From the NCBI GenBank assembly GCA_038874655.1, contig JAVZBY010000009.1, positions 1-43,155 on the forward strand: a stretch of DNA of 43,155 nt. Direction: 5' to 3'. Both the position numbers and the translations under genes were made by a program. Shown here piece after piece: positions 5,910-36,310 of this stretch. The stretch is from Candidatus Woesearchaeota archaeon. Lineage in GTDB: Archaea; Nanobdellota; Nanobdellia; Woesearchaeales; GW2011-AR15. Each line of letters starts with the position of its first letter. The stretch's first letter is position 1. Below the pieces are notes generated by a model. It ran no database searches and had not been told where the DNA came from. It saw only the letters and a program-made list of their open reading frames with translations.

Positions 5910-6428
5910 TTATGGATTACATATTTCTAAGCTTATAAAAACAGGTGGATATAAAATAGGTAAAGGATACTCTGCAACTTGCTCTTTTTCTACAAACCTA
6001 GATAAACATTTTGAATTTATAGGAATATCATTTATTTTATTAGGTTCATTATCTCTTCTTATTGAAAATCTATAATCCCTAGACCAATTTCCTAGTGTTG
6101 CTTCTAATGCATTTTTTATTGTGTTTTCTGCATAAGCACAACAATTTGAATTTTGTCCACACATATCATGCTTATTTTCATAACATGCTTTTATAATGTC
6201 TACTACTTTTAAATTTTTTTCAGTATTTGTGTTTAAAATAGATGACAAAAAATTGTCTGCTAATTTAGGGTCTAAAAATCTTTGTGAGATTTTTCGTTTA
6301 TTTGTATTTATACTTATTATTATAAAACTACCTATAACTAATATAATGACTATTATTACTAAACCTACTATTTCTGTTTGTGCTTTTTTATTTTTTGATT
6401 TTTTACTAATTTTTTTTATTTTTTGCAT
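5910..6428 (-). CDS. Class III signal peptide (pilin-like) protein
   Basis: KKAQ-TEIVGLVIIVIILVIG: basic leader plus hydrophobic helix; Cys-rich body. Confidence 0.75.
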   Translation of the reverse strand: MQKIKKISKKSKNKKAQTEIVGLVIIVIILVIGSFIIISINTNKRKISQRFLDPKLADNFLSSILNTNTEKNLKVVDIIKACYENKHDMCGQNSNCCAYAENTIKNALEATLGNWSRDYRFSIRRDNEPNKINDIPINSKCLSRFVEKEQVAEYPLPILYPPVFISLEICNP

Positions 6429-6433
6429 TTTAA

Positions 6434-6940
6434 TTATTCATAAATTCTTAAAAATAAAACACCAAATTTATCTTCATGATCTACAACATTTCTTAGCAAA
6501 ATAGGCATTTGAATTTCTAAAAAACCTTTGTTTTCTTTTTTTGGGTTATCATAAATTTCCCATGTCTTTATCCATCTATCTCCATTTAAACAATCATAAC
6601 AATCTGGACTAGGTTCAAATTGTTTTATGAAAATTTTTACATTGCCAAATAAAGGTTCATAATAAAATTTTTCTTCATTTAAAATATCTTTAAATGATTC
6701 TATTTTTAATATATCATAACAATTTTGTGAAACTTGATTGTTACCCATGCATTGCAATTCAACCATAGAATTTAGTAATTGTATTTTTTTTATCATTTCA
6801 AGTTGCTTAAATTCTCTATCTTTTTCTTTTAATTGCTGATTTTGATATCCTAAAAAAAATATGAATGCAAATATTAAGATTATGAAAACTACTAAGATTA
6901 CCAATGCGTTTTCCATTATTTGTAGTTGTGCTTTTTTCAT
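6434..6940 (-). CDS. Class III signal peptide (pilin-like) protein
   Basis: MKKAQ-LQIMENALVILVVFII. Confidence 0.75.
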   Translation of the reverse strand: MKKAQLQIMENALVILVVFIILIFAFIFFLGYQNQQLKEKDREFKQLEMIKKIQLLNSMVELQCMGNNQVSQNCYDILKIESFKDILNEEKFYYEPLFGNVKIFIKQFEPSPDCYDCLNGDRWIKTWEIYDNPKKENKGFLEIQMPILLRNVVDHEDKFGVLFLRIYE

Positions 6941-6962
6941 TTTAATAAGTATCCATCATTTT

Positions 6963-7976
6963 TTAATAAATGCTTGGGCATGATTTTTTCATTAAATTAG
7001 TATTTAATTCTTTTAATTGATTTTTTGTTGAAACAAAATTATTTTCTGAAATTTCACCATCATTAGTTATTTGTTCTATTTGCTCTAATAAAGATTTAGC
7101 TATTAAATATTGGTTTTTATCACAACTTTGAAGCAAATCTGAACTAGATAATTTTTCAGCTCTTTTTATTAATAATTTTGTTATTTTATTTAATCTTGTA
7201 ATTGCCTTTTTAAGATTACATTCATATGCTTCTTTGTTATCAGAATAAATAGCTGCTAATAATGTTTCTTTATCATAAAAATTTGATGAACCTTTTTCTT
7301 CAAATGAAAAACCTTTTTTTTGATAATAGGTTATTTTATTAAGATCAAAATTAATTTTTACTGCTGTTATTTTTGAATCTTTAAAATTTCTTATTGCATT
7401 TGGTAGATTGTAATTTAAAGGATCTGTATTTAAAAAAATAAATCTAATGGAATCATAGTTTTGATTTTGAAAATTTGATAATGATTTTGCTTTTATATTT
7501 GAAGGTAGATTTTTTTTTATATTTTCATCATCATAAACATAAAGATGATTAGAACTTGTCATATAAATAAAATGAGTTACTTTAAAAGGACTATACCATG
7601 CTAAAGTATTTGTAAATAATTGAGAATTAATTGTTTCTGGAGAAAAGATCGGAATAAATTTATTCTCTTTTTTTATTGCATTTTTTCCAATTGTGTAATA
7701 ATTACATTGATCATTTCCTGTTTTTGCAGAATCTATTTTTAATTGCATATTTGATAAAGAGATATTGCTTTCGCTATTTTCTAAATCCTGTACACCAACT
7801 AAAAGAGCGTCAAAATAATTTAAAAGTTCATATTCTTGTTGTTTTTCTGCTGATTTTCTTATGCCATTTGCTACTGTAAAGAAAACTAATAAAATAAAGA
7901 AACCTGCAATAGCAACATAAAGCCAATTAAACTGTATTTCAACTGCTGCTTTTTTATTTAATTTTTTTATTTGCAT
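6963..7976 (-). CDS. Class III signal peptide (minor pilin-like) protein
   Basis: KKAA-VEIQFNWLYVAIAGFFILL. Confidence 0.7.
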   Translation of the reverse strand: MQIKKLNKKAAVEIQFNWLYVAIAGFFILLVFFTVANGIRKSAEKQQEYELLNYFDALLVGVQDLENSESNISLSNMQLKIDSAKTGNDQCNYYTIGKNAIKKENKFIPIFSPETINSQLFTNTLAWYSPFKVTHFIYMTSSNHLYVYDDENIKKNLPSNIKAKSLSNFQNQNYDSIRFIFLNTDPLNYNLPNAIRNFKDSKITAVKINFDLNKITYYQKKGFSFEEKGSSNFYDKETLLAAIYSDNKEAYECNLKKAITRLNKITKLLIKRAEKLSSSDLLQSCDKNQYLIAKSLLEQIEQITNDGEISENNFVSTKNQLKELNTNLMKKSCPSIY

Positions 7977-8007
7977 TTTTTTAATAAGTTTTATCTAGTT
8001 TATCTTT

Positions 8008-8514
8008 TTATGGATTTGTGTATAGTTCAGCTACTTTGCCTGTGCCTCTTATCCATAATTCTTTTCTTTCTTTGCTTTTAATACACAAAAAATCATCCAA
8101 TACATCTAATTTATCTACATAAAAAGAGCTTAATATTTTTTTGTTTTTTAATAAAAAAATATTGGGCTCTGCATCATTTAAAATACTTGTTTGAATTAAA
8201 GGATAATTTGCTAATAAATCATTATTTTTTAACTGTTGACTAAATTTATTATTTTCTTTTGAATCAGCAAAACATATTTCATCAAAAGGGGTTGGTGGAA
8301 TTTTTTCTGTGAATTTTTTTTGGCTATTATATTGTGTTGCATAAGTATAGATGTAATCTTCAAATTCCTTTTGAAAAGATTCTATGTTAATTGATTTTTG
8401 TGTAGATAATAATGTAGAAATTGATCTATATCCTACTATAAAGAGTAATCCAATAATAATTGCAGCCATGAGATAAATAAAAACTTGTGTTGAGATTTGT
8501 GATTTTTTTGCCAT
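8008..8514 (-). CDS. Class III signal peptide (pilin-like) protein
   Basis: KKSQ-ISTQVFIYLMAAIIIGLL. Confidence 0.75.
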   Translation of the reverse strand: MAKKSQISTQVFIYLMAAIIIGLLFIVGYRSISTLLSTQKSINIESFQKEFEDYIYTYATQYNSQKKFTEKIPPTPFDEICFADSKENNKFSQQLKNNDLLANYPLIQTSILNDAEPNIFLLKNKKILSSFYVDKLDVLDDFLCIKSKERKELWIRGTGKVAELYTNP

Positions 8515-8575: not shown

Positions 8576-11164
8576 TTATTTCCTATTTAATCTTTTTTTT
8601 GCTAAATTATCTAATTCATCAAAAACAACATCTTCTTTTTCGCTTTTTTCTTTTTCTGTTTCTTTTTGTTCTGCAAACTCATCAAATATGGATTTCATTT
8701 TCCTAAGTTTTAATTGTTCTTTTTTTCTTTTGATTAAATAATCCGGATCTGCTTCTGCAATTGGTCTATAATCATTATTTGGTTTTATTTCTTTAAATTC
8801 TGGATTTGGGTAAAAAGATTGTTGATTCTGCATTTGTGTTTTTTGAAATAAATTTTGATGATTTATATTTGGATTTTCAAATTTATTTTGTGAAATAGTA
8901 TTTGGTGTTTGTTTATCTTGAATTCCTGTTTGCGTTTTTTTATAGGTGTTAGTTAGATTAATATTGAAAGAAGATTTTGGCATTTTTTTTATTACAAAAT
9001 ATATTCCAACAGATAACAAAGATACTAACAATATAATTAAGATTATTGTTATTGTATAATTTTTAGGATAACTTTCAGAATCTAATGGATCTGTTTCTTT
9101 TTCAATTTCTATTTTGTCAGAAAAACCATCTCCATCACTATCTTTTTCATCAACTTTTGTACCATAAGTTAGGCATTCTTCTTTATTTGTTAAACCATCT
9201 TCATCATTATCATCATCAGCATCATTTTTATTAGGATTTAAACCACATTCTATTTCTTTTTTATTTGAGATTCCATCTTTATCTGTGTCTAAATCATTTG
9301 GATATTTTGTTTTATCTAATGGGTCTGTTTTTTTTTCAATTTCAATCTTATCATCTGCTCCATCTTCATCTGTGTCTTTTTTTCTAATATCTGTTTTATA
9401 AGTTAGGCATTCTTCTTTATTTGTTAAACCATCTTTATCAAAATCTGCGTCTGCATCTGTAGAATTAAATTTGTCTAAGCCACATCTTTCTTCATCTACA
9501 TCTAATATTCCATCTTCGTCTGAATCTAGATTGGAAGTATCACAGATAATAGGCAATTTAACACAGACATCTTGAACACATTGTAATGCTTTTTTTCTTA
9601 AACAGCATTCTGTTATATTTGTTTCTGTACAATTCTCAATTTTAAAGTTCATTACTTTTTGTGTTGTTAAATTTTTTGAATTTGTCGAGAAATAGCATAA
9701 ATTTGTTGTATTATCAATATTAATTGTAGAGAGATATCTTCTTGAATTATTACACACATCTGAGAAAGAATAATTAATTGTACATTGTCCATATACATCT
9801 GAACAACTTAAATTAACCATAATGTTTTTTCCTGTGAAGATAGCTGATAAATTTAATACTGGTGGTTTTAAGAAACATTCGGATTCTGGATTTATGTATA
9901 TAGATTGAGATTTAACAATAGAACTGTTTTGGCCTGCAATATTTTGAGCATATGCTAATAAATAATATGTTTCACCTCTTGTGAAATTATATTCTATATT
10001 AATAAATGACGAACTTGTAAATAAATTGCTCAGTAATGTGTAATTTGAGTTATTAACTAATGTGTAATAATAACCTCTAATCCCAGTATTATTTATAATA
10101 AAAGTTGCATTTATGCTTGTATTATCACATGTTGTTCTTGTTGCATTTATTATTAAATTTGATGGAGAAGATAAAGATACTATAAAAGATATGTCTTGAT
10201 ATAAGGTAGAAGGTTCTCCTTGATCAAAATCACACCTTATTTTATAGGTGTAAGAACCTTCGTTTAAATTAGATAATTGAATAAAATGCTCTTTTTTGTT
10301 GAGTTGTGGAAAAAAGTTCATATAGTTTTCGCCATATTTGCAATTACTATTTCTATTTGTTATTACTAATAGTTCAAGGCTTCTATTAAAAATAATTCCA
10401 CTTGGTTTTGTTTCTAAAATTTTATTTTTTTCAGATAAATTTGTTTTAAAATTAATTTTTTCGATTTTTGAAAATAATTGTGCTAAATTCATACAACTTA
10501 CAAAAAAGGTGTAATTTTTATTATCCTCTAATTTTGGAGTTGTTTGATCTGTTAAAGTTAATATATGTCTTTTCCTAAAACTAGAAATATTTGAACTATT
10601 AAAAAAACTAAAATATTCTTCTATATCTGGTTGAGTTAAATCAAATCTACAAATAGTTAGATCATCTGTTTCAACTATAAGCTGAACATATAATTTTTCA
10701 ATTACATAATCTGGAATTGCTAATAAATTTAAAAATTGGGGTTCTGTTCTATCTAAAACTAGAGTAAAGTTTATTGGAAAACCATCATTTACATAATTAT
10801 TATCTAATGTTTTACATAAGATAAATATTTTTTTTTCTTCGTTTTCTGGGATATTCAACTGAAAATCTTTTATAATATGATCATAAGGTGATTCTGTGCT
10901 AAAAAAATTACTTGGACTTGTTATCTCAGAATAATTTAAGTTTGGATTATATGTATATTTACAATTAGATGCATTACTTGTTTTTATTCTTAAATCAAAT
11001 CTATCTACTTGTGTGCCTCCATATTTTGGTTCTATTAAGGTTATGTTTATTAAACTACTATTTGGTTTAGTTTGTTCTGTTTGTGCATTTAAAAAATCTA
11101 TATTTAGATAATATATAGTTAATAGTACTAAAAATATTAAAAAAGATTTATTTATTTTTTCCAT
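8576..11164 (-). CDS. Large single-pass surface protein with Ig-like repeats, Ca-binding DxDxDG repeats, TM helix and cytoplasmic tail
   Basis: Signal peptide; many N-x-S/T sequons; DSDEDG/DTDKDG repeats; TM ITIILIILLVSLLSVGIYFVI; SD GAGGT. Confidence 0.8.
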   Translation of the reverse strand: MEKINKSFLIFLVLLTIYYLNIDFLNAQTEQTKPNSSLINITLIEPKYGGTQVDRFDLRIKTSNASNCKYTYNPNLNYSEITSPSNFFSTESPYDHIIKDFQLNIPENEEKKIFILCKTLDNNYVNDGFPINFTLVLDRTEPQFLNLLAIPDYVIEKLYVQLIVETDDLTICRFDLTQPDIEEYFSFFNSSNISSFRKRHILTLTDQTTPKLEDNKNYTFFVSCMNLAQLFSKIEKINFKTNLSEKNKILETKPSGIIFNRSLELLVITNRNSNCKYGENYMNFFPQLNKKEHFIQLSNLNEGSYTYKIRCDFDQGEPSTLYQDISFIVSLSSPSNLIINATRTTCDNTSINATFIINNTGIRGYYYTLVNNSNYTLLSNLFTSSSFINIEYNFTRGETYYLLAYAQNIAGQNSSIVKSQSIYINPESECFLKPPVLNLSAIFTGKNIMVNLSCSDVYGQCTINYSFSDVCNNSRRYLSTINIDNTTNLCYFSTNSKNLTTQKVMNFKIENCTETNITECCLRKKALQCVQDVCVKLPIICDTSNLDSDEDGILDVDEERCGLDKFNSTDADADFDKDGLTNKEECLTYKTDIRKKDTDEDGADDKIEIEKKTDPLDKTKYPNDLDTDKDGISNKKEIECGLNPNKNDADDDNDEDGLTNKEECLTYGTKVDEKDSDGDGFSDKIEIEKETDPLDSESYPKNYTITIILIILLVSLLSVGIYFVIKKMPKSSFNINLTNTYKKTQTGIQDKQTPNTISQNKFENPNINHQNLFQKTQMQNQQSFYPNPEFKEIKPNNDYRPIAEADPDYLIKRKKEQLKLRKMKSIFDEFAEQKETEKEKSEKEDVVFDELDNLAKKRLNRK
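9070..9530 (-). repeat. Intragenic tandem duplication, 234-bp (78-aa) period, Ca-binding repeats
   Basis: ataagttaggcattcttctttatttgttaaaccatct at 9164 and 9398; DGLTNKEECLTY and DKIEIEK.TDPLD each occur twice. Confidence 0.85.
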
Positions 11165-11210: not shown

Positions 11211-13220
11211 TTAAGGAATTGTTAAATCATATAATGCTTGAGCAAATTTTGTATTGCCTATTGCCAATAATTCATATGTAAATGTGCCTTTTCCTGGTTG
11301 TGTGTCTTCAAAAGAGGTTAATTGACAATCATTTGTTTTATGCAATAGGTTTCTATTTTTAAGTAAGGTTAATTCTTTACAATCACCATACACTTGCCAT
11401 GTTATTTTTACTTTGTTGTTATCTAAAACAGCTTTAAAATCTTTTATGTAAGTGAAATCGTTTGATGTTGATGCATATATTATTTCTGTGTCTGATTTAT
11501 CTTTTCTAGATAAGGTTAATTTATAATAATAAATTTTATCTTTTTGTAAATTTTGATCTAAATAATTTAAATCTTTTCCTTCATAAATTAAGGGTGCTGT
11601 GTTAAAGTTTTCTGTTTCAGATCTATATAGTTTAAAAGATCCATAAGGATATTTTGCATCCCATATTAAATAAATTGTATTGTCTGTACTATATAGTTTT
11701 TTGAATTGTGTTATATCTTGTATTTCTGAGTTTGTGCAAAATTCATCTTGCTTTTTATCTTCAATTGTGTTTTTTCTAATTATTAATGTATAATTATAAC
11801 ATTTATCTTTCTCTAAATTTTCATCAATATATTTTGTTTTTGTGCTGTCATTTAAAATTAAATCATCATTTCTATATAACAAAATTTCATCAGGATATCC
11901 ATCAAAAGACCATTGTAATTCAATTGTGTTATCTGTAAATGATTTTTTGTCAAATGCATTTATTTTGATTAGGTCTATCTTAATTTTTATAGAAACTGGT
12001 TTACTTTCTTTTATATCTTTTGTTGAATTATATGCATATATTGTATAGTTATATTCTACATCAAGTTCTATATCTGAGTCATTATAGTTATTTATAGTTA
12101 TGTTAGCTAATAAGATATCATTTTTCTTTATTATATAGTATTCTGCTTCAGGATTATTGTCCCAGGTTAATTTTATTTCTCCTTCTATGTATTCTGCTTT
12201 AAAATTTTCTACTGGTTTTGTTTGCGTAATCTCTGGTGTTTTTATTGTTATTGTTTTATTTTTGCTTTCTTTTATGTCATAGGTTTCATTATATGTTGAA
12301 ACAGAATAAGTATATTCTGTGTTAGAAGTTATTTCTGTATCTTCATAGGTTGTGGATTCTAAATTTAATTGTTTAACTCCATTTTTATAAATTATATAAT
12401 ATTGTGCTTCTGGATTTGTATCCCAAGTTAAGATTATTTTACCTTCTTTATATTCTGCTTTCAGGTTTTCTATTTCTGGAGTTTGTGTTTCTTGATTTGT
12501 TTCTTGATTATTTTGATTGTTATCTAAAAATTCTTTTACGCTATTTAATCTAACATAAAAATCTGGTTTATAACCATCTACTATTTGTTGTGATTCAACT
12601 AAGAGCCAACATTCATTATTCCTTAATGCTGAGTCAAATACTAAAAGTTCTGTTTCATAAGATAATCCAATATCTGTCGGATAATCACCAAAAGAATCGC
12701 AAAAGTTTCTATCCCTAGTGTCTAAAACTTTATTGGATTTGAATTTTTTATTTATATATTGATCATGTTCATTACATTTTTCTAATTGTGTTATTTGATT
12801 ATTACATTTTTCTTGATTATCTGTGTTTTGAGAATTTTGATTTGATGTGTCTGTAGTAGTGTCTGATGATGATGTTGTATCTCCTTGAGAAGTTGAACTT
12901 GGATAACCACTACTACTGGGATCTGATGATGAAGAAGATGGTAGCGAATTTTTATTATTACCAGAATCTTGATTTGTAAATGTTTGTGTAGTCAAATCAT
13001 AAATTTTATCTTGTGAAAAAAGGCATGATGGATTATAATTAAAAGTAAGGGTTCCTTTGGTTGTTTGTTGTGGTTCAGGTAAACTTTGAGATACTGAACT
13101 AGAACTAGTATCTGTTGAAGTTTCTGAACTTTGATTCTCACAACTAAATAATAATATCATAAATATGAAAATCAAAAATAAATATTTATTACTGTTTTTC
13201 TGAGGAATCTTTTTTTTCAT
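11211..13220 (-). CDS. Predicted lipoprotein with Ser/Thr-rich linker and about five fibronectin type III-like domains
   Basis: Lipobox-like LLFSC; repeated LTW...Y.I.KN...Y.D......Y.Y units; overlaps the upstream gene by 32 bp. Confidence 0.8.
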   Translation of the reverse strand: MKKKIPQKNSNKYLFLIFIFMILLFSCENQSSETSTDTSSSSVSQSLPEPQQTTKGTLTFNYNPSCLFSQDKIYDLTTQTFTNQDSGNNKNSLPSSSSSDPSSSGYPSSTSQGDTTSSSDTTTDTSNQNSQNTDNQEKCNNQITQLEKCNEHDQYINKKFKSNKVLDTRDRNFCDSFGDYPTDIGLSYETELLVFDSALRNNECWLLVESQQIVDGYKPDFYVRLNSVKEFLDNNQNNQETNQETQTPEIENLKAEYKEGKIILTWDTNPEAQYYIIYKNGVKQLNLESTTYEDTEITSNTEYTYSVSTYNETYDIKESKNKTITIKTPEITQTKPVENFKAEYIEGEIKLTWDNNPEAEYYIIKKNDILLANITINNYNDSDIELDVEYNYTIYAYNSTKDIKESKPVSIKIKIDLIKINAFDKKSFTDNTIELQWSFDGYPDEILLYRNDDLILNDSTKTKYIDENLEKDKCYNYTLIIRKNTIEDKKQDEFCTNSEIQDITQFKKLYSTDNTIYLIWDAKYPYGSFKLYRSETENFNTAPLIYEGKDLNYLDQNLQKDKIYYYKLTLSRKDKSDTEIIYASTSNDFTYIKDFKAVLDNNKVKITWQVYGDCKELTLLKNRNLLHKTNDCQLTSFEDTQPGKGTFTYELLAIGNTKFAQALYDLTIP

Positions 13221-15564
13221 CTTTTATTTCTCCACATAAATTACAATCTGTTGAGTCTTTCCAAATACCATAATAATTATTATAAGGTTGGCATTCATAA
13301 CATCTAGTATCTACTATTATTTTTCTATTAATTAATGAAGCTGCACAACAATTTGGGCTATTATCTAAAGATGAAATGCATTTGAAATAAACACAATTTT
13401 GATTTGAGTCTTTCCAGATAAAGTTCTTCTCATTTTTTTCACATTTCTTACATTTTCCATCAATAAAATCATATTTGTCTTTTGAGTCTTCATTGCATAA
13501 AATATTATAATCTTCTTTTACACCACTTCCTTTAAACAATATTTGTGCTGCACCCATTAAACAAGCATCTGGATTTTTATTATCAAGCTTACTATTTTTT
13601 GATTCAATTGTGAATTCTAAAATAACATCAGTTGAGCAATCATCTTTTTCATCTTTTTTTTGGCATGTATCTCCACTTTTAAATTTTTTAAAATGCGCAT
13701 TTAATATTTGACAATCATCGTCATCATAACAAATAGGAGTTATATCTATGCTTAAAGTGTGGGTAGTAGTTTGACTACTTCCCCCTGAAGAAGAGGTACT
13801 AGGAAGAGTATATTCAACAGTAATTGTTTCTCTTTGTTTTATTTGAGACTGAGCTCTTGGTAAATTAACATCTATTCCCTCTCCTGCTGAAATTGCCTTT
13901 TCCGTTTTAGTCTCATCATTTTTTTGTGCAATACAACTATCACCTAAACCTTTAAAATGAATTTCATAAACTTGTCTTGCTTTTAAATCATCATATTTTT
14001 CATAAGCACATGATTCTAAGCCGCAGAAGTAAAGATAATTATTATCATATTTTACATTTTCTATTTTTATAATTTTACCTTTAATTTCTGAACCACATTC
14101 ACCTTCTAATTTATAATTAGTTGATGAAATAAATTTTTTATTTTGACTTAATTGATTTACTAAATCAAGAAAAGTTTTTAATTCCTCTAAATTAAAAGTT
14201 TTTCCGTTTATTGTTGTTGATGTTTTTTCAGTATCAAATTTTACATTTTCTTTATTAAATTCTGTAATTAAATCAGTTGTTTCATCTGCAAAATCCAAAA
14301 ACACATATCTTTTATTATCATCATCACAAACACATCTTTGAACACCGCATTTGTCTTTATCTTCTTTTATTTCAGAACACTCATTTGAAAAATCCATACA
14401 ATTATTATTACTATCTTTAAAAAAGAAATCGTTGTTTATTGTGGTTGGAGATCTTGTTGCTGTTGTTTTTATTCCATCAACAGTGCATTCATTACCACTT
14501 AAAAATTCAACTTCTTCTAATTTTTTTGTTCCTTCTTTTATTGCTACAGATGATGCTTCTTTGTATAATTGTCCTGGATAAATTGGATTTTTTTTATCAA
14601 AATTTTCAACATATTGCCATTCATTACAATCTCTACAACCTTCTTTTATTAATACAGGTGTTATTATTTGGTTTATTGCATTTTCAGAACCACATCTCAC
14701 AACACTTCCATAAATACTAAAATGCTTTGTTTCAACTGTTAAAACATTATTAACAGGATCAACCTTAGTAGGCAAACCAATCCAAATTCCTAAATTATCT
14801 GGATAATAGCCAACTTTAATGTCTTCTTCTTTAATAAATGGCGGAATTTCCCAATCTTCATAAAAATAATATATCTTTACTGGCTTAGAAAATACTGCTC
14901 CATGTGGAATTAAATTATAAGCAGTCATTCCCATCAAAACTGAATTACTTAATGCATTAAAATTTCTATCTAATTGTTTTATTCCAACTGAACTTACAGG
15001 TTTTCCATCTAAAATTGCTTCTGTTTCAGGAGGAATTTCAATTTTTATTTTCTTGTCAGCTGAAAAAACAATTGTTTCAGAATTTTTATTTAATCTTTCC
15101 ATAACAGTTCTAGGATATGTGTAGATTGATTTATCAAAAGACAATTTTAAATTATCTTTTTGCAAATTTATTTTATAACTAACCTCTGCAATTAAAGCAT
15201 CATTAGTTATTTTAATATTAACATTTGGTTTTTGTTCCTCTACAACATAACCTAAATCTTTATATGAATTTAAATTTAAACAATTTGGAAGATATTTCTC
15301 AACATGGGATTTTATCATGGGTGGTGAATTAACTCTATTTAGACCATACAATTTTTCTCCTTCAATAACTATTTCTTTTATACAAGAATCAACTTTTGAT
15401 CTAAATATATCTTGTTCAACTTTCTTGTTTATATTTTGCTCTTTATTTGGCTTTAATGATAAAAAGACAATGCTAATAATTAATATAATTAAAATACCAA
15501 TTATAAAAAATATTGTTATTTGAGACTTTTTAACACACTTATTATCAAAATTAAATCTAATAAT
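13189..15564 (-). CDS. Large pilin-like adhesin: class III signal, ZU5-like domain ending in HFS, Cys-rich C-terminal region
   Basis: Frame extends 5' of the TTG at 15351 through KKSQITIFFIIGILIILIIS; no ATG/GTG/TTG upstream; ATT codons at 15564/15561 follow GGGTGGGT. Confidence 0.7.
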   Translation of the reverse strand: MIRFNFDNKCVKKSQITIFFIIGILIILIISIVFLSLKPNKEQNINKKVEQDIFRSKVDSCIKEIVIEGEKLYGLNRVNSPPMIKSHVEKYLPNCLNLNSYKDLGYVVEEQKPNVNIKITNDALIAEVSYKINLQKDNLKLSFDKSIYTYPRTVMERLNKNSETIVFSADKKIKIEIPPETEAILDGKPVSSVGIKQLDRNFNALSNSVLMGMTAYNLIPHGAVFSKPVKIYYFYEDWEIPPFIKEEDIKVGYYPDNLGIWIGLPTKVDPVNNVLTVETKHFSIYGSVVRCGSENAINQIITPVLIKEGCRDCNEWQYVENFDKKNPIYPGQLYKEASSVAIKEGTKKLEEVEFLSGNECTVDGIKTTATRSPTTINNDFFFKDSNNNCMDFSNECSEIKEDKDKCGVQRCVCDDDNKRYVFLDFADETTDLITEFNKENVKFDTEKTSTTINGKTFNLEELKTFLDLVNQLSQNKKFISSTNYKLEGECGSEIKGKIIKIENVKYDNNYLYFCGLESCAYEKYDDLKARQVYEIHFKGLGDSCIAQKNDETKTEKAISAGEGIDVNLPRAQSQIKQRETITVEYTLPSTSSSGGSSQTTTHTLSIDITPICYDDDDCQILNAHFKKFKSGDTCQKKDEKDDCSTDVILEFTIESKNSKLDNKNPDACLMGAAQILFKGSGVKEDYNILCNEDSKDKYDFIDGKCKKCEKNEKNFIWKDSNQNCVYFKCISSLDNSPNCCAASLINRKIIVDTRCYECQPYNNYYGIWKDSTDCNLCGEIKDEKKDSSEKQ

Positions 15565-17612: not shown

Positions 17613-17629
17613 TTTAAAAAATACTCTTT

Positions 17630-17887
17630 TTATTTATTTTCTTTATTGAACATAGGCATACAACACTTTTCATTTTCATTACAATCTTTTGCTTTAATCT
17701 CTATTTCTGAAAGAGGATCACAAGCCATAACCTCTTTACAATCACCGCCTTTTAATCTACATCCTTCTGTTGTGTCATTTAAGTTTTTCACATTTCTACC
17801 TAATATAAAAATAAGAATTACTAAAACTAACATTGCTAAAATAGCAATTATAATTGTGTTTATTGATAAGGATTGTGCTTTTTTCAT
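17630..17887 (-). CDS. Mini-pilin with six-Cys (beta-defensin-like) head, copy 3
   Basis: MKKAQSLSINTIIIAIL; C-x6-C-x5-C-x12-C-x5-CC; ATG at 17887 overlaps the upstream TGA (ATGA). Confidence 0.8.
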   Translation of the reverse strand: MKKAQSLSINTIIIAILAMLVLVILIFILGRNVKNLNDTTEGCRLKGGDCKEVMACDPLSEIEIKAKDCNENEKCCMPMFNKENK

Positions 17888-18150
17888 TCTTTCCCGCTTA
17901 TTGGAATGCAACATAATTTATTTTTATCTTCGCACTTTCCAAATGGATGTAAAGTATAGCCATCATTGCATTGGTTATCTGTGAATTTATCACATGTTCC
18001 ACCATTTGAGATGCAACTATCTGTTGTTTTTGTAAATATTTTTATGTTGCCTGTTAATATTGCTATTAATAAAACTAAAACTAATAATGCCAATAAAGCT
18101 ATTATTATTGTGTTTATTGATAATGATTGTGCTTTTTTGAATTTTTTCAT
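17884..18150 (-). CDS. Mini-pilin with six-Cys (beta-defensin-like) head, copy 2
   Basis: KKAQSLSINTIIIALL; C-x6-C-x7-C-x11-C-x6-CC. Confidence 0.8.
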   Translation of the reverse strand: MKKFKKAQSLSINTIIIALLALLVLVLLIAILTGNIKIFTKTTDSCISNGGTCDKFTDNQCNDGYTLHPFGKCEDKNKLCCIPISGKE

Positions 18151-18168
18151 TTTAGTTAATTCTTGCTT

Positions 18169-18465
18169 TTATGTTTTTATACAGCAAACTTTAGTTTCAT
18201 CTATATCGCCATTTATTTTAAAACATTGATAGTTTCTATTTACTAAAGAATAATCTCCAGAGCATTTTTCATCAATTTCATTCTGATTAATGCAAACACC
18301 TTTGTGAGATTCACAAGAATCTGCTCCACGCCTAAATCTAGTCATATTTGTTGTAAATATCATAACTACTAATATCATAACTACTAATGCTATTGCTGCC
18401 ACTATAATTGTATTTATGGAAATAGATTGTGCTTTTTTATTATTTTTATAATCAAATTTTTTCAT
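18169..18465 (-). CDS. Mini-pilin with six-Cys (beta-defensin-like) head, copy 1
   Basis: KKAQSISINTIIVAAI; C-x6-C-x9-C-x12-C-x12-CC. Confidence 0.8.
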   Translation of the reverse strand: MKKFDYKNNKKAQSISINTIIVAAIALVVMILVVMIFTTNMTRFRRGADSCESHKGVCINQNEIDEKCSGDYSLVNRNYQCFKINGDIDETKVCCIKT

Positions 18466-18538
18466 TTTATTATTATAATGTTTTGATAAAAGTATATAAA
18501 AATTTCTATTTTAAATTTTCTCATAATTTTATTAAAAA

Positions 18539-29257: not shown

Positions 29258-29935
29258 ATGAGAAATATATCAAAAATAATATTTTTAGCTTTTTTAGCTT
29301 TGTTTTTTGTATCTGCATGTCAAATTAACAATCCAGAAAATAATATAATAAAAGAAGAAAATGAGAGATATGATTGCTTAAATGGCTATTCTTGGAATGA
29401 AAAAATTGATGCTTGTATTAAAAATTTAGAATTAGATGAAAGTCAACTTAAAGCAGTACAAATTGCTGTTGCACCATTAAGTTATAAACCTGTGCATATA
29501 GAGAGAGTTGAGACATTAAGATGTCCAGGCTGTTTTATAATTACATTAATATATAATAACAATCAAATTAGAGATATAAAATTAATAAATTGGAAAATAT
29601 CTAAAGAGGATATACAATTTTGCAGTGAAGAAGAAAAAAAAGGAGTTATTTGCACTTTAGAGTATATTCCTGTTTGTGGAGATAACGGAAAAACATATAG
29701 TAATAAATGTGCAGCTTGTGGAAGCAAAGAAATAGATTACTATTACTTAGGGGAATGTAATGAAACAAAAAATAAAGAAACAAATCAAGATTATGAGATT
29801 GATGAAAAAAAGAGAGATTGCAAAGAATGCCCTTTATTAAGTCAACCAAGCCCTGATTTCTGTAAATACGGAACTATTGTTGCAGGAGAAATTGATGAGT
29901 GTGGTTGCCAAGGCCCACCAAAGTGTGTTTATTAA
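29258..29935 (+). CDS. Predicted lipoprotein with a Kazal-type protease inhibitor domain
   Basis: Lipobox-like FVSAC; CTLEYIPVCGDNGKTYSNKC...GEC; SD GGTGA. Confidence 0.85.
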   Translation: MRNISKIIFLAFLALFFVSACQINNPENNIIKEENERYDCLNGYSWNEKIDACIKNLELDESQLKAVQIAVAPLSYKPVHIERVETLRCPGCFIITLIYNNNQIRDIKLINWKISKEDIQFCSEEEKKGVICTLEYIPVCGDNGKTYSNKCAACGSKEIDYYYLGECNETKNKETNQDYEIDEKKRDCKECPLLSQPSPDFCKYGTIVAGEIDECGCQGPPKCVY

Positions 29936-31842: not shown

Positions 31843-34800
31843 TTATTTCAGAACATAGCTAAAGTCAATTGTACTATTATCATTTAAAGTTATTCTATAA
31901 TTGTATCTATATGCTAAAAATCCTATTAAGTTCTTTGTATTTATGTTAAATATCCATAGCTTATCTTTGTCATCCCATCTAAATTCATTAAAAGGTGTGG
32001 TTGAAATAATTTCTTCTTCTGTTATCTCTACAAAAGGATTAGTTAAAGAACTTTTTAATAATTTAAATTCCTTAACTATGCCAGGTGTATTAATTGAATT
32101 TCCATTTGCATCACAGACCCTAAATTTTGCAGGGACAGTGCTTTTTTGTTTGAAAACACTTGTACCATCTGCTCTAATTGGAGGTAAAATTTGATGACCT
32201 GGCATATCTAGACATAATCCATCTGGAGCATATATTACTCTGTAATTTAATAATGTCTCTCTTTTATTACCCACATTATCAAAAGCAAAACAATTTATTG
32301 ATTTTTCTCCAACACTATTTAAGTCTAATTCTTCACATGCTTGATTAAATAAACCTGAACCATAATCAACTGCGTTTAAAGTTATTGTTGCATTTCCATT
32401 TAATATTATTGGATTTGGCTCTACTATTGGATTTAAAATTGGTGCTTTTTTGTCAATTTTATTTCCTTCAACAGTTATTGGATAAACACAATTTCCAACT
32501 AAATCACAAACTTCTTCATTTGAAAATGCAACTGCATTATCTGTTTCTGTTTCTTCAGAAACATCTGTTTTTAATTTAATCTCTTGTGTTTCTGGACCAG
32601 AACCATAATCACTATAATTACATAAAATTTCTACATCTTCTTTGTGCCATAAACCATCTGGCTCTTCACATGACAATAATTCAGGGGATTTTTTATCTAC
32701 TTTAATATTATAAAAAGGCCCAGCTATAACACAATTATTTAATTTATCACATACATTAAAAGTATTTGTAGATGCATTGTTTGTTTCAATTCCAATATCA
32801 ACAGTAGTAGTTAAATTGAAAATATCATAATCAATACCAACTCCATTATCAGCAACAGAACAGAGTATCAAGACATTTTCATTATTCCAATTATCATCAG
32901 GCATTTGGCATTCAAATGTAGGCGATTTTCTATCTATTTTAAATTTAAAAGGACCAATAATTACACAATTTCCAGCATTATCACACACTTCTTTAGTGTT
33001 TGTTTCTGCATTATCAGTTTCAATACCTTGCTCAATATTTGTGGTTAAAACAATTATATTATCTCCTGAAAATCCTGAAAAATGATCAGAAACATTACAA
33101 ATTACATTTACATTATCATTATACCATTTATATTCTGGAATCTCACACTCTACAATAGGAGCACTTTTATCAATTTTAATTATATCATATTTAATTTCCT
33201 CAACATTTCCATAATCACTAAAATTAATATTTTCATAAGTTCCATTTCCAAATCCACTATTATCAACACTTAAATACCTAAGATAATTAATTCCTTCATT
33301 TGATATTAGAATTTGATTTCCTTGATGATTTGGTTGACATATATTTTCATTATCTATGCAATAATAAGTTGCTTGAACACCGCATATATTATCTATAGAG
33401 CTTAAATTTACTATAATATCTGTGTTTTGCCATTCATTTGGAACATTACTTGTAGTTATTGGTGGTTCTTGATCATGTTCATCTATTAAATTATTACAAT
33501 CATTATCTTTTCTATCGCAAATTTCTGGGTTTCCAGAAAAGATATCAGCATCTAAATCATTACAATCTCCGCATGTTAAGCTATAATTATCTAAGTCATT
33601 ATCTTCTTCACAAGATACTTGACAGGTGTTTTGTGTACATGTAAAAAGAGCTGAACAATAGTTATTTACAAATTCTGGAAAATCACCAAAGATATTTACA
33701 GAACAGCCAGAACCACAACCATCATTTGGACATATAGTTGGCTCACAATCTTGGTTTTGTGTATCATCAAAAATAGGATTTCCATTTTCATCACAAATAG
33801 CACATATTCCTGCATCATTTCCAAAACTTGTGCAATTACTCCAAACGCCATAGAAACAAGTTCTTGTTCCTAAGCATAATCCTGAACCACATTCACTTAT
33901 TAAATTTTCATCAATTAAATTATTGCAATTATTATCCTTATTATCACAAGATTCATTATTATTAGGAAAGTTTAAAGGATCATTGTCATTACAATCACAA
34001 AGTTTACCTGCTCCATCCTTATCATTATCTAATTGATCTGGATTAAGAACAAAAGGACAATTATCACATGCATCTCCGTATTTGTCTGTAAGAGAATTAT
34101 AATCCCTATTAAAATTTAATTTAATATCATCAAAATAAGCATATTGCCCATAAACTCTAGAATAATCCCAACCACCTATTTTTAATCTAAACCTTGAAGA
34201 TGAACTCATTGCTGTTGTTGGCTCTGATCTAACTAAAACACCATTTTCCCAATATTCTATAGAATTTCTCTTTACTACAAATTTAAAGTTCACATACTCT
34301 CTTGGCAAAGTTCTGGATTGTTCTGTTGAACTAGTTGAGGATAAAATAAACCTAATTCTAGAACCATAAGCAGCATAACCAACACCAACATTATTATTTG
34401 TGGAAGCATCTTGAAGCAATAACAGCATTTCTGCTGTAGAGGCAGGATTAAATTTCCATTTTCCTTCAATTGTTATGTTCTGCCATACTGAATTAACAAT
34501 GTCCCTGGAAACCAAATAAATATGATAATCTGGACTTCCTCCTTTTCCGAGAATATTAAATCTAGCTTCTTGGTTTATTTCTTCAAAAACACTATCCCCA
34601 ACTTTATCAAACATAGGCCATTTTGTTGTGTTTAATAAGTTATCATTAAAATTATCTTCAAAAGAACTTTCTAATCTATCAGAATCTTTTTGGTCTGGAT
34701 TATATGCATAAGGACAATTATCACATACATCACCTATACCATCTTGATCAACATCTTTTTGGTTTGGATTATATAGATAAGGACAGTTATCGCAAACATC

Positions 34801-36075
34801 TCCGATCCCATCTTTATCATCATCATTCTGATCAGAATTAAATATATAAGGACAATTATCGCAAACATCACCAAAAATATCATTATCAATATTTAATTGG
34901 TCTGGATTATATATTAAAACACAATTATCATTTCCAGTACATTCATTTGAATAAAAGTTTTTTCTGCAAATACCATCATGATCAATATCAGGAAGCCAAC
35001 CATAAGGAATAATAAAAGGATAAATGTCTTTTCCTGTATCAAAAATAGAATAATTTGTATCTCCAATACTATCACCATCTATATCTTTTCCTTTGTAATC
35101 ACTCCAATAATTACCACCATTAGGATAACCATCGTCAAAATAATTTTGAGTATTAGAATAATAATTTCTTAATTGGTTTATATTATCAATAAAATTATTA
35201 TGGTATATTTTATTATTAGAAGAATATCTATCTAAATAAACACCATAAGAAGAGTTTAAAATATTATTTTTTGTTATTAAATGCCTTTGTCCTAGAGAAG
35301 TATAAATTCCAAATGTTGTTTTGTTTATCTGATTGTTTATAATTGTAATATTATAACTATTATAAGTAAAAATTCCATAATTTACATTTTGAATCTTACA
35401 ATTTTGGATAGTGATGTTTTTTTTACTATACAAATAGATTCCATTCTCTGTAGTAGGTTGTATTACATGATCATTACAATCCAAAGTTATAGTGTCATTT
35501 GTTATTTCTATTGTTTCCATTATGTTTGTTGTTAATGTACATTTTTTTTGCATATTATCCCAAATTCCTATCTTTACACAATCTCCACCTGTAGAATTAT
35601 CCCTAATAAACTTTGTAGAGGGTTTATTTTGAATCCAAACATGTTTCGGATAACCTTCTATTGAGAAATTTATTTTTCCTTGGCAATCTTCACAATCTTT
35701 TTCAGCAGGAATGGTTTGCTTATTTTCATAAGTATTTTCATACAAGTAATATTCTTTATCAGGAATTAATCCATAAACTGAGAAATCTGTTTTCCCTTCT
35801 AATTCATCTATTAGCATATCAACTCTTTCAATTTCATCTGTGCCTAAAACCAAAACACTCATTTTTACGCTTTTATTTGTTTCAATAAAAATTGCAGGCG
35901 TCTTAGTAATAAAAGTTGTATTCAAAGTATCTAAAATTTCAAAATTCGGAAAATCTATTTTTTCAACTTTTTCTAGGTTTTCATTTGTATCAAAAAATTC
36001 ATTTTCCTTTTGCTGTGCAAAAGAAAAACTTAAAAAAAATATAACTAAAAAGAAATAGATTGTACTTTTTTTCAT
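31843..36075 (-). CDS. Large secreted multidomain protein: NosD/beta-helix, TSP3 repeats, ConA/LamG-like insert, MopE-like Cys repeats, Ig-like repeats, PxKF-like C-terminus
   Basis: [14 protein letters not shown] signal at ATG 36075 after GGGGGGT; GNYWSDY; CDNCP..NPDQ.D.D.DG; DCND....P...E.CD.KDN.C; KID...P repeats; VPAKF. Confidence 0.85.
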
Positions 36076-36237
36076 TGTAGACCCCCCGAAAAGAATATAT
36101 AATATATATAAGTATATATAAGTTATATAAAAAGATTGCTGAATTTTATATTTAGATAAAAATTTAATAATATAATAAGATATTATAATAAAAAAGTAAT
36201 GAAAAAATACTTGCAAAAAAATTAAAAAAAGTGAATA

Positions 36238-36310
36238 AGCCTCCGAAGGGAGTTGCACCCTCGACCTGCGGATTACAAGTCCGCCGCAATAGCTACTATG
36301 CTACGGAGGC
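36238..36310 (-). tRNA. tRNA-Thr(TGT), intronless
   Basis: GCCTCCG/CGGAGGC, GCGGA-CT-TGT-AA-TCCGC, GAGGG-TGCAACT-CCCTT. Confidence 0.9.

Follow-up and report, generated by a model that had tools for sequence, protein, structure and literature searches.

Among short archaeal pilins with class III signal peptides, those with which the proteins discussed here can best be compared are the Epd pilins of Methanococcus maripaludis; for the major one, EpdE (MMP1685), a mature mass of 6400 Da is predicted, and glutamine at position +1 is required for its processing by EppA (PMC4390842). For some nanoarchaeal ATPases, a census of type IV pili in archaea published in 2016 could not identify the cognate pilins; it also states that class III signals serve proteins that do not form pili (PMC4858521). 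In a separate field, a 2024 paper (PMC11561630) reports only cis-defensins from bacteria, trans-defensins being assigned to vertebrates and some invertebrates. In big defensins the N-terminal domain is a globular beta1-alpha1-alpha2-beta2 unit with no known homologue outside that family (PMC7203481). Features of both protein types are found in three tandem genes located at positions 17,630 to 18,465 of a 43,155-nucleotide stretch of DNA (contig JAVZBY010000009.1 of assembly GCA_038874655.1, Candidatus Woesearchaeota archaeon, of the small-genome DPANN type; the whole stretch is referred to below as the window). Their products, called mini-pilins, may be regarded, with a probability of about 0.55, as subunits, and probably the principal subunits, of a fibre that is conserved, resembles type IV pili and carries a hypervariable disulfide knob. 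This reading is favoured by the conserved KKA|Q junction, a helix more conserved than a membrane anchor needs, the small size, the tandem multi-copy arrangement, the position after a minor-pilin-like set of four genes with a large adhesin-like protein, and the occurrence of the family in nearly all of the order.

All three genes lie on the minus strand. Copy 1 (18465-18169), the representative of type A, is an open reading frame (ORF) for 98 amino acids (aa), with the leader MKKFDYKNNKKA|Q, a helix at about residues 17-49, and a 45-residue head with six cysteines that ends in CC followed by three residues. Copy 2 (18150-17884), of type B, is an ORF for 88 aa with the leader MKKFKKA|Q, a helix at residues 12-43 and a 36-residue head, also with six cysteines, in which strands are predicted at 52-55, 65-67 and 78-83. 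Copy 3 (17887-17630), another type B protein, has 85 aa when read from the start MKKAQS; its longest ORF (17914-17630, 94 aa) would overlap copy 2, and its homologues begin at MKKAQ. The segment KKAQS(L/I)SINTII and the hydrophobic run that follows it are common to all three copies in an alignment, so that both the ORF list and the alignment agree with the earlier note on this DNA, which had described three tandem paralogues sharing a leader and a hydrophobic helix. The head spacing given there, C-x6-C-x5-9-C-x11-12-C-x5-12-CC, was measured in every copy (6/9/12/12/0, 6/7/11/6/0 and 6/5/12/5/0 in copies 1, 2 and 3), and the heads are indeed not cationic, with net charges of -3, -1 and -2 in the same order. 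The leader DNA pattern AARAARGCNCARWS occurs four times in the window against 0.15 expected, a number reached in none of 100 shuffles; its fourth match (6376-6389) belongs to another pilin-like gene. The presence of three six-cysteine mini-pilins is confirmed, and their pattern is far beyond chance. Up to the head, 16-28 of 40 residues are identical between copies; the heads share only 10-13 aligned residues, six of them being the cysteines. Between copies 2 and 3 the nonsynonymous and synonymous divergences (dN/dS) are about 0.10/0.76 over the initial 25 codons, and since synonymous divergence among the copies is about 0.75, none of them arose by a recent duplication.

The three proteins belong to a much larger group. 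A word-indexed search with copy 2 retrieved 16 further proteins of 81-115 aa, none of them functionally named, and when 1.84 billion cluster representatives were searched with a 19-sequence profile, 4201 of them matched at an E-value of 1e-3 or lower and 1512 at 1e-10 or lower; the best 150 of these matches are all full-length proteins of 76-132 aa. Among the 162 database proteins gathered by the word and profile searches, one of which is identical to copy 2, 160 have exactly six cysteines in the same order. In an alignment of 146 sequences the six cysteines are the sole invariant columns, and K-2, Q+1, S+4, N+6, I+8, A+11 and V+17, as well as the second G of the GG preceding Cys2, are each at least 90% conserved, Gln at +1 reaching 97%. 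Of 165 family sequences, 163 have the leader motif [KR..]-[AGS]-[Q], most commonly as KKAQ (91), followed by KKGQ (14) and RKAQ (12). Column entropy rises from 1.14 bits in the leader and helix to 2.82 in the linker and 3.21 at the non-cysteine positions of the head, which supports, at the level of sequence, the description of the heads as hypervariable. Nearly all members keep C-x6-C, and the remaining loops range from 3 to 16 residues (C2-C3), 9 to 24 (C3-C4) and 3 to 28 (C4-C5); as only the six cysteines and the GG before Cys2 are fixed, the loops appear free to vary. The net charge of the head, taken over 165 sequences, has a median of -2 and is negative in 81% and positive in 8%.

In the ESM Atlas the protein falls into archaeal clusters (Nanobdellota, Candidatus Woesearchaeota) annotated as "hypothetical protein". 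A survey across the phylum gave a family match (E-value of 1e-6 or lower) in 176 of the 201 sampled genomes and in 137 of 158 genera, usually with two tandem copies per genome (range 1-5, mostly adjacent). The 25 genomes with no match comprise one of the same family, five of the same order, 14 of the same class, and five more that are unlisted. Outside the order the matches are single and weaker, with E-values of 1e-7 to 1e-11 in other orders of the class. Judged by these searches, the mini-pilins are a large unnamed archaeal family, near-universal in the order. In each of the four genomes examined from the window's own taxonomic family (its own genome, G081, G193 and G169) a type A gene leads the tandem and a type B gene comes second; type A proteins resemble copy 1, with an N[FW]R[RQ] linker and a terminal CC plus three residues, and type B proteins resemble copies 2 and 3, this type being duplicated in the window's genome. 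The two can be considered old paralogue types. In variant family members of relatives (L020 2197-2478, L021 915-1205 and L025 1746-2054) the leader and helix are kept, the linker is longer and the cysteine patterns are different, one of these variants ending in CCCC; the helix thus carries disulfide knobs of more than one kind.

Gene context gives good support to the pilin reading. Regions of 20 kb around family members were compared in 12 relatives, 11 of these loci being scored by script and the twelfth by eye. Within 5 kb of the family, 2-8 further class-III-like ORFs are present at all 11 scored loci, 63 in total, against a baseline of 0.31 per 10 kb (39 ORFs) obtained with the same crude rule for the window's genome; the arrangement at the twelfth locus looks alike. 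The order that recurs in the relatives is an approximately 880-aa TSP3-repeat protein, four pilin-like genes, the mini-pilin family, and further pilin-like and large genes. In the window the corresponding four pilin-like genes lie on the minus strand at 5910..8514 and encode proteins of 172, 168, 337 and 168 aa, with the leaders KKAQTEIVG, KKAQLQIMEN, KKAAVEIQFNW and KKSQISTQVF; none of the four has a Pfam match, and the genes at 8008-8514, 6963-7976, 6434-6940 and 5910-6428 are recognisable homologues of the four in the relatives. Orthologous pilin motifs adjoin family members at loci L027, L028, L029, L030, L032 and L035, and the homologue of 5910-6428 is located 40-92 nt upstream of the family at four loci and about 3 kb upstream at two more. 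Next to the four genes, at 8576..11164 on the minus strand, is the gene of a secreted protein of 862 aa that contains bacterial TSP3 repeats (PF18884, E-value 1.7e-11) and a C-terminal membrane segment and has a weak match to the pilus-like system protein Amuc_1099 (27 bits, cut-off 50). In relatives the island regularly begins with this gene, homologues being present at L027-L030, and its product is a candidate adhesin. The NCBIfam models gave only sub-threshold rows for the neighbouring pilin-like and large proteins.

In the window itself the pilin-like genes at 5910-8514 are about 9 kb away from the trio, which lies upstream of the island with MarC and RNase J genes in between. In G081, a genome of the same family, trio-type genes and the island are adjacent, with RNase J next door; the island in the window is rearranged. 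A 105-aa class-III-like protein of the source genome (C5:18117-18434, plus strand; L005 1498-1815) also has six cysteines, arranged as C-x8-C-x2-C ... C-x3-C-x2-C; its gene lies on another contig, beside a PCNA-like gene, and its counterpart in G081 (L028 9350-9655) stands directly beside the mini-pilin pair, so that the island is scattered in the source genome. Two large proteins with no Pfam family are encoded upstream of the island (11211-15351, minus strand), the first of 669 aa, with a Ser/Thr-rich stretch and repeated units of about 75 residues, and the second of 720 aa and very rich in cysteine; both may be fibre-associated adhesins.

The source genome (1.26 Mb in 17 contigs, 97% complete, the window being contig 9) encodes the components that such a fibre would need. 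It has a single A24 prepilin peptidase (C11:11322-11690, 52 bits, over the cut-off), five matches over the cut-off for the T2SSE-type ATPase and a sixth below it, and TadC/T2SSF matches over the cut-off at three places, each beside an ATPase. The peptidase gene lies about 7 kb from one of the ATPase/TadC sets (C11:557-4434), on a contig other than that of the pilin-like genes. Two canonical-looking pilins of the genome (C1:186808-187275 and C1:279276-279803) share the KK[AG]Q junction. The earlier note had classified the leader as an EppA-type class III prepilin signal; the class III-like leader, the Gln at +1 and the pilin-like clusters of the relatives uphold the class III part of this statement, while the sole peptidase is nearer to FlaK than to EppA. 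As it scores 58.6 bits on the FlaK model (cut-off 330) and 27 bits on the EppA model (cut-off 450), it is to be taken as a generic archaeal prepilin peptidase and not as an EppA equivalog, and because it reaches neither cut-off, the label "EppA-type" has the +1 glutamine as its one ground. Weak matches to the Flp1_like model are present in seven of the 146 members (best E-value 0.018). With regard to disulfide formation, VKOR was not found in the 97%-complete genome; a DsbA-like protein is encoded (Thioredoxin_4, 105.8 bits) that has membrane helices at its N-terminus and a CYSC motif, and it is a candidate oxidase for the many extracellular disulfides of the organism. Its DsbA-like domain (C1:112592-113077, minus strand) is part of a 315-aa open frame in which membrane helices with paired cysteines precede it. 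Several other cysteine-rich secreted proteins are encoded in the window; together with the DsbA-like protein they make extracellular disulfide formation plausible.

The head was modelled with AlphaFold2. The model of copy 2, built with the 146-sequence alignment, has a mean predicted local distance difference test score (pLDDT) of 82.9, a helix at residues 12-43 and a three-stranded head; that of copy 1 has a pLDDT of 87.2, a helix at 17-49 and an extra helix at 61-67, and in both models the long helix has a pLDDT of 89-97. When copy 2 was compared with the PDB by Foldseek, the eight best rows were defensins or defensin-like peptides, and named defensins account for 19 of the 50 rows listed. 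The best row is human beta-defensin-1 (E-value 0.25, probability 0.87, target-normalised template modelling (TM) score 0.67), superposed with a root-mean-square deviation (rmsd) of 1.7 Å over 36 of 36 residues; the identity of 28% is probably what six aligned cysteines and a few further residues would give. Beta-defensin-3, platypus DLP-2 and avian AvBD11 come next. VIA-align, an aligner independent of Foldseek, was run against 48,161 representative chains and placed six beta-defensin-type chains at the head of its list, with Z-scores of 4.2 to 3.3: DLP-1 (Z 4.2, rmsd 2.9 Å, 42 of 42 residues), the C-terminal half of AvBD11 (3.7), DLP-2 (3.6), beta-defensin-4 (3.5), beta-defensin-2 (3.3) and a sea-anemone peptide (3.3), followed by coiled-coil noise at 3.2. 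As the alignments start at model residue 36-41, the last part of the pilin helix corresponds to the short helix with which the defensin peptides begin. On this modelling, a three-stranded fold like that of beta-defensins is predicted for the type B head, and the type A head would be an elaborated version with an inserted helix. An EGF-like head was considered and rejected: clotting-factor light chains make up much of the remainder of the Foldseek list of copy 2, but at TM-scores of 0.12-0.32 and rmsd values of 4-11 Å, and the Pfam match to cEGF has an E-value of 0.0086.

Sequence comparison points in the same direction as the models. The top PDB sequence match of the family profile is the big defensin 2rng (E-value 0.022), aligned from the hydrophobic part through all six cysteines, and those that follow, at E-values of 0.2-4, are tick carboxypeptidase inhibitor, crotamine, DLP-1, DLP-2, gallinacin-11 and another big defensin; in the matches to crotamine and the platypus peptides, too, the six cysteines are in register. 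Weak Pfam matches at an E-value of 1 or lower, all below the cut-offs, were obtained among the 146 members for Defensin_beta (10 members), Defensin_big (8), Defensin_beta_2 (7) and Inhibitor_I68 (12). The best E-values for PF00711, PF13841 and PF14862 are 0.0055, 8.2e-4 and 0.005, and none of these three models matches a family member at 5e-4 or lower. The plant family PF25052 (AtDEF-like) is matched as well: 37 of 146 members match it at an E-value of 1 or lower and 15 of 143 at 5e-4 or lower, four members pass the 25-bit cut-off (best score 32.1 bits), and none of the three window proteins does, copy 1 scoring 21.7 bits. The matching proteins are mostly of type A (members P0021, P0047, P0066 and P0130). 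Since these matches cover model positions of about 7-77 out of 79, nearly the whole length, the archaeal helix is paired in them with what is presumed to be the plant signal peptide.

Compared with the Epd pilins, the mini-pilins have the same short basic leader with K-[G/A] and Gln at +1, the same long hydrophobic helix and very small mature size, and likewise several pilin-like genes in a cluster; they differ in the predicted three-disulfide knob, in matching no curated pilin model, and in being accompanied by a peptidase that is no EppA equivalog. No report of a three-disulfide knob on any pilin was found in the literature searched. With beta-defensins, DLPs and crotamine (PF00711, PF13841) they share the cysteine order C-C-C-C-CC, the C-x6-C start and the GG before Cys2. 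Spacings in beta-defensins are typically about x6, x3-5, x9-13 and x4-7; copies 2 and 3 (6/7/11/6 and 6/5/12/5) are near this range, and the family as a whole reaches x16, x24 and x28. Beta-defensins follow a Sec signal and a propeptide, whereas the heads of the mini-pilins are fused to a pilin-type helix. The disulfides of beta-defensins pair as 1-5, 2-4 and 3-6, the pattern that the earlier note expected. The layout of big defensins (PF14862; 2rng, 6qbk), with a hydrophobic N-terminal part, a linker and a C-terminal six-cysteine domain, is the same; however, big defensins are soluble secreted peptides with a globular N-domain, in contrast to the single long helix predicted for the mini-pilins and their prepilin-type leader, and the match between the two is marginal.

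In the fibre proposed here, the leader would be cut after K-K-A by the single A24 peptidase, leaving Gln at +1, and the conserved hydrophobic helix of about 30 residues would pack into the core of a filament built by one of the three ATPase/TadC machineries. The head of 34-45 residues would stand on the fibre surface, held by three disulfides that are probably made by the membrane-anchored DsbA-like oxidoreductase. Free loops on anionic heads suit a contact surface for adhesion or the recognition of a partner better than an attack on membranes, and the head may have such a role; host recognition and antigenic variation, both put forward in the earlier note, are conceivable as well, and an antimicrobial role is unlikely because the heads are anionic.

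Several results weigh against this interpretation. Neither an ATPase nor TadC nor the peptidase is encoded near the trio in the window, according to a Pfam scan, and none was seen by eye in the 20-kb loci of the 12 relatives, the ORFs of which were inspected without a Pfam scan; scans of the three proteins against Pfam and NCBIfam gave no match over a cut-off, to a pilin model or to any other, and no RNA run holding the stretch is among the listed public runs. As for the head, copy 2 has no Foldseek match in the PDB at an E-value of 1e-3 or lower and no VIA-align match at a Z-score of 5 or higher among the 48,161 chains. Copy 1 fares worse: its Foldseek list has no defensin near the top, the nearest related row being tick carboxypeptidase inhibitor at rank 33, and with VIA-align DLP-2 (Z 3.3, rmsd 4.2 Å) and DLP-1 (Z 3.1) are tied with coiled coils. 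The defensin scores are all weak, as expected for 36-45 residues, and a convergent cysteine framework would score alike; AlphaFold, moreover, may have learnt the cysteine pattern from solved defensins. Beta-defensins are also cationic, whereas the heads of the mini-pilins are anionic, have far more variable loops, come from archaea and score below the Pfam cut-offs. The defensin-like head announced in the earlier note therefore stands in part: copy 2 is three-stranded in the model, with defensins at the top in two aligners, but the scores are weak, and as copy 1, with its extra helix, retrieves no defensin above noise, the support for the likeness is limited to the minimal head of type B.

The lack of an adjacent ATPase or TadC and of a curated pilin match would also be expected if the proteins were merely anchored at the surface, the class III signal serving export and anchoring with no long fibre being formed, as in the sugar-binding proteins of Sulfolobus; the knob would then bind ligands or act like a receptor, either at the membrane or as part of a short pseudopilus. 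The use of class III signals by non-pilus proteins, mentioned above, speaks for this explanation; nevertheless, it is rather unlikely, as the mini-pilins are small even for pilins and occur in several copies, their genes follow the four-gene minor-pilin-like set and the large adhesin-like protein, and their helix is conserved beyond the needs of an anchor, with the polar residues S+4 and N+6 near-invariant. The proteins could also be ordinary single-pass membrane proteins or Sec-secreted cysteine-rich peptides, in which a hydrophobic N-terminus and a common cysteine framework would produce the pilin-like look and the defensin-like model by coincidence. The commonest weak Pfam matches of the family are indeed hydrophobic-segment families (DUF948, TMEM154, WSS_VP), and the matches to PF25052, a family with a signal peptide and a cysteine domain, show how easily such an architecture is cross-matched. 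This explanation is improbable all the same: the hydrophobic run of about 25-30 residues is too long for a Sec h-region, which is shorter, the residues at the proposed cut are the most conserved of the protein, class-III-like genes are strongly enriched around the family, and the canonical-looking pilins of the genome share its KK[AG]Q junction.

It is very improbable that the mini-pilins are defensin-like effectors acting against a host or competitor, with a helix that targets or stores them and a knob that is released or acts in place, by analogy with big defensins. What speaks for such effectors is that a big defensin leads the PDB profile matches, from the hydrophobic part through the six cysteines, and that defensins lead the structural ones; yet the E-values are marginal, the heads are anionic, with only 8% of the 165 sequences positive, the linker, with its entropy of 2.82 bits, contains no conserved cleavage site between helix and head, and the globular N-domain of big defensins has its counterpart in a single 32-residue helix in the model of copy 2. 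Hardly to be expected, in turn, is an extension of the fibre-subunit reading in which the trans-defensin fold has true archaeal homologues in these pilin heads, the layout of big defensins was derived or acquired from such a prokaryotic surface protein, and the family is the main host-contact fibre subunit; homology of the heads to animal defensins is unproven.

Should the mini-pilins be fibre subunits with a defensin-like head, the surface-fibre subunit of a major group of ultrasmall archaea would be the product of a gene that almost all of them have, in several copies. What this subunit exposes would be a minimal scaffold of disulfides with free loops, a display platform that could determine the choice of partner cell. 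Outside animals, no other fold of the beta-defensin type would be known, and convergence and descent alike would bear on the origin of trans-defensins. No prior description of the family or of a defensin-like pilin head was found in the literature searched, which did not cover subscription journals. The proteins are small, abundant in databases and easy to express.

The gap of 18 nt between copies 1 and 2 and the overlap of the ATG of copy 3 (17887) with the TGA of copy 2, as ATGA, make it most likely that the three mini-pilin genes form one transcription unit. A TATA-box-like element, TTTATATA, read from the sequence at 18493..18500 on the minus strand, about 30 nt upstream of the ATG of copy 1, is a candidate archaeal promoter of the trio, and a T6 run at 17616..17621 on the same strand, 9 nt past the stop codon of copy 3, is a candidate oligo-T terminator; a terminator scan found no hairpin terminator after the trio. 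A sigma-70 promoter scan of the region is irrelevant to archaea.

The window, with a G+C content of about 25%, is archaeal, as indicated by the genes for topoisomerase VI A and B, NMD3, a Hel308-type archaeal helicase and RNase J recognised in it by the Pfam scan. The stretch is listed for five public runs, all of them DNA and labelled as hot-spring metagenomes; the contigs of four runs gave only short fragments of it, from which no strain variation of the heads could be read. Among the remaining genes, one at 31843-36258 (minus strand) encodes a 1471-aa protein with motifs of the NosD/beta-helix and MopE metal-binding types; as listed, with a GTG start, this gene overlaps that of a tRNA-Thr (36238-36310, minus strand) by 21 nt, and the true start is therefore probably located further downstream. 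A 225-aa protein (29258-29935, plus strand) contains a Kazal-type serine protease inhibitor domain (PF00050, E-value 7e-10, over the cut-off), another animal-style small disulfide domain in the same archaeon.

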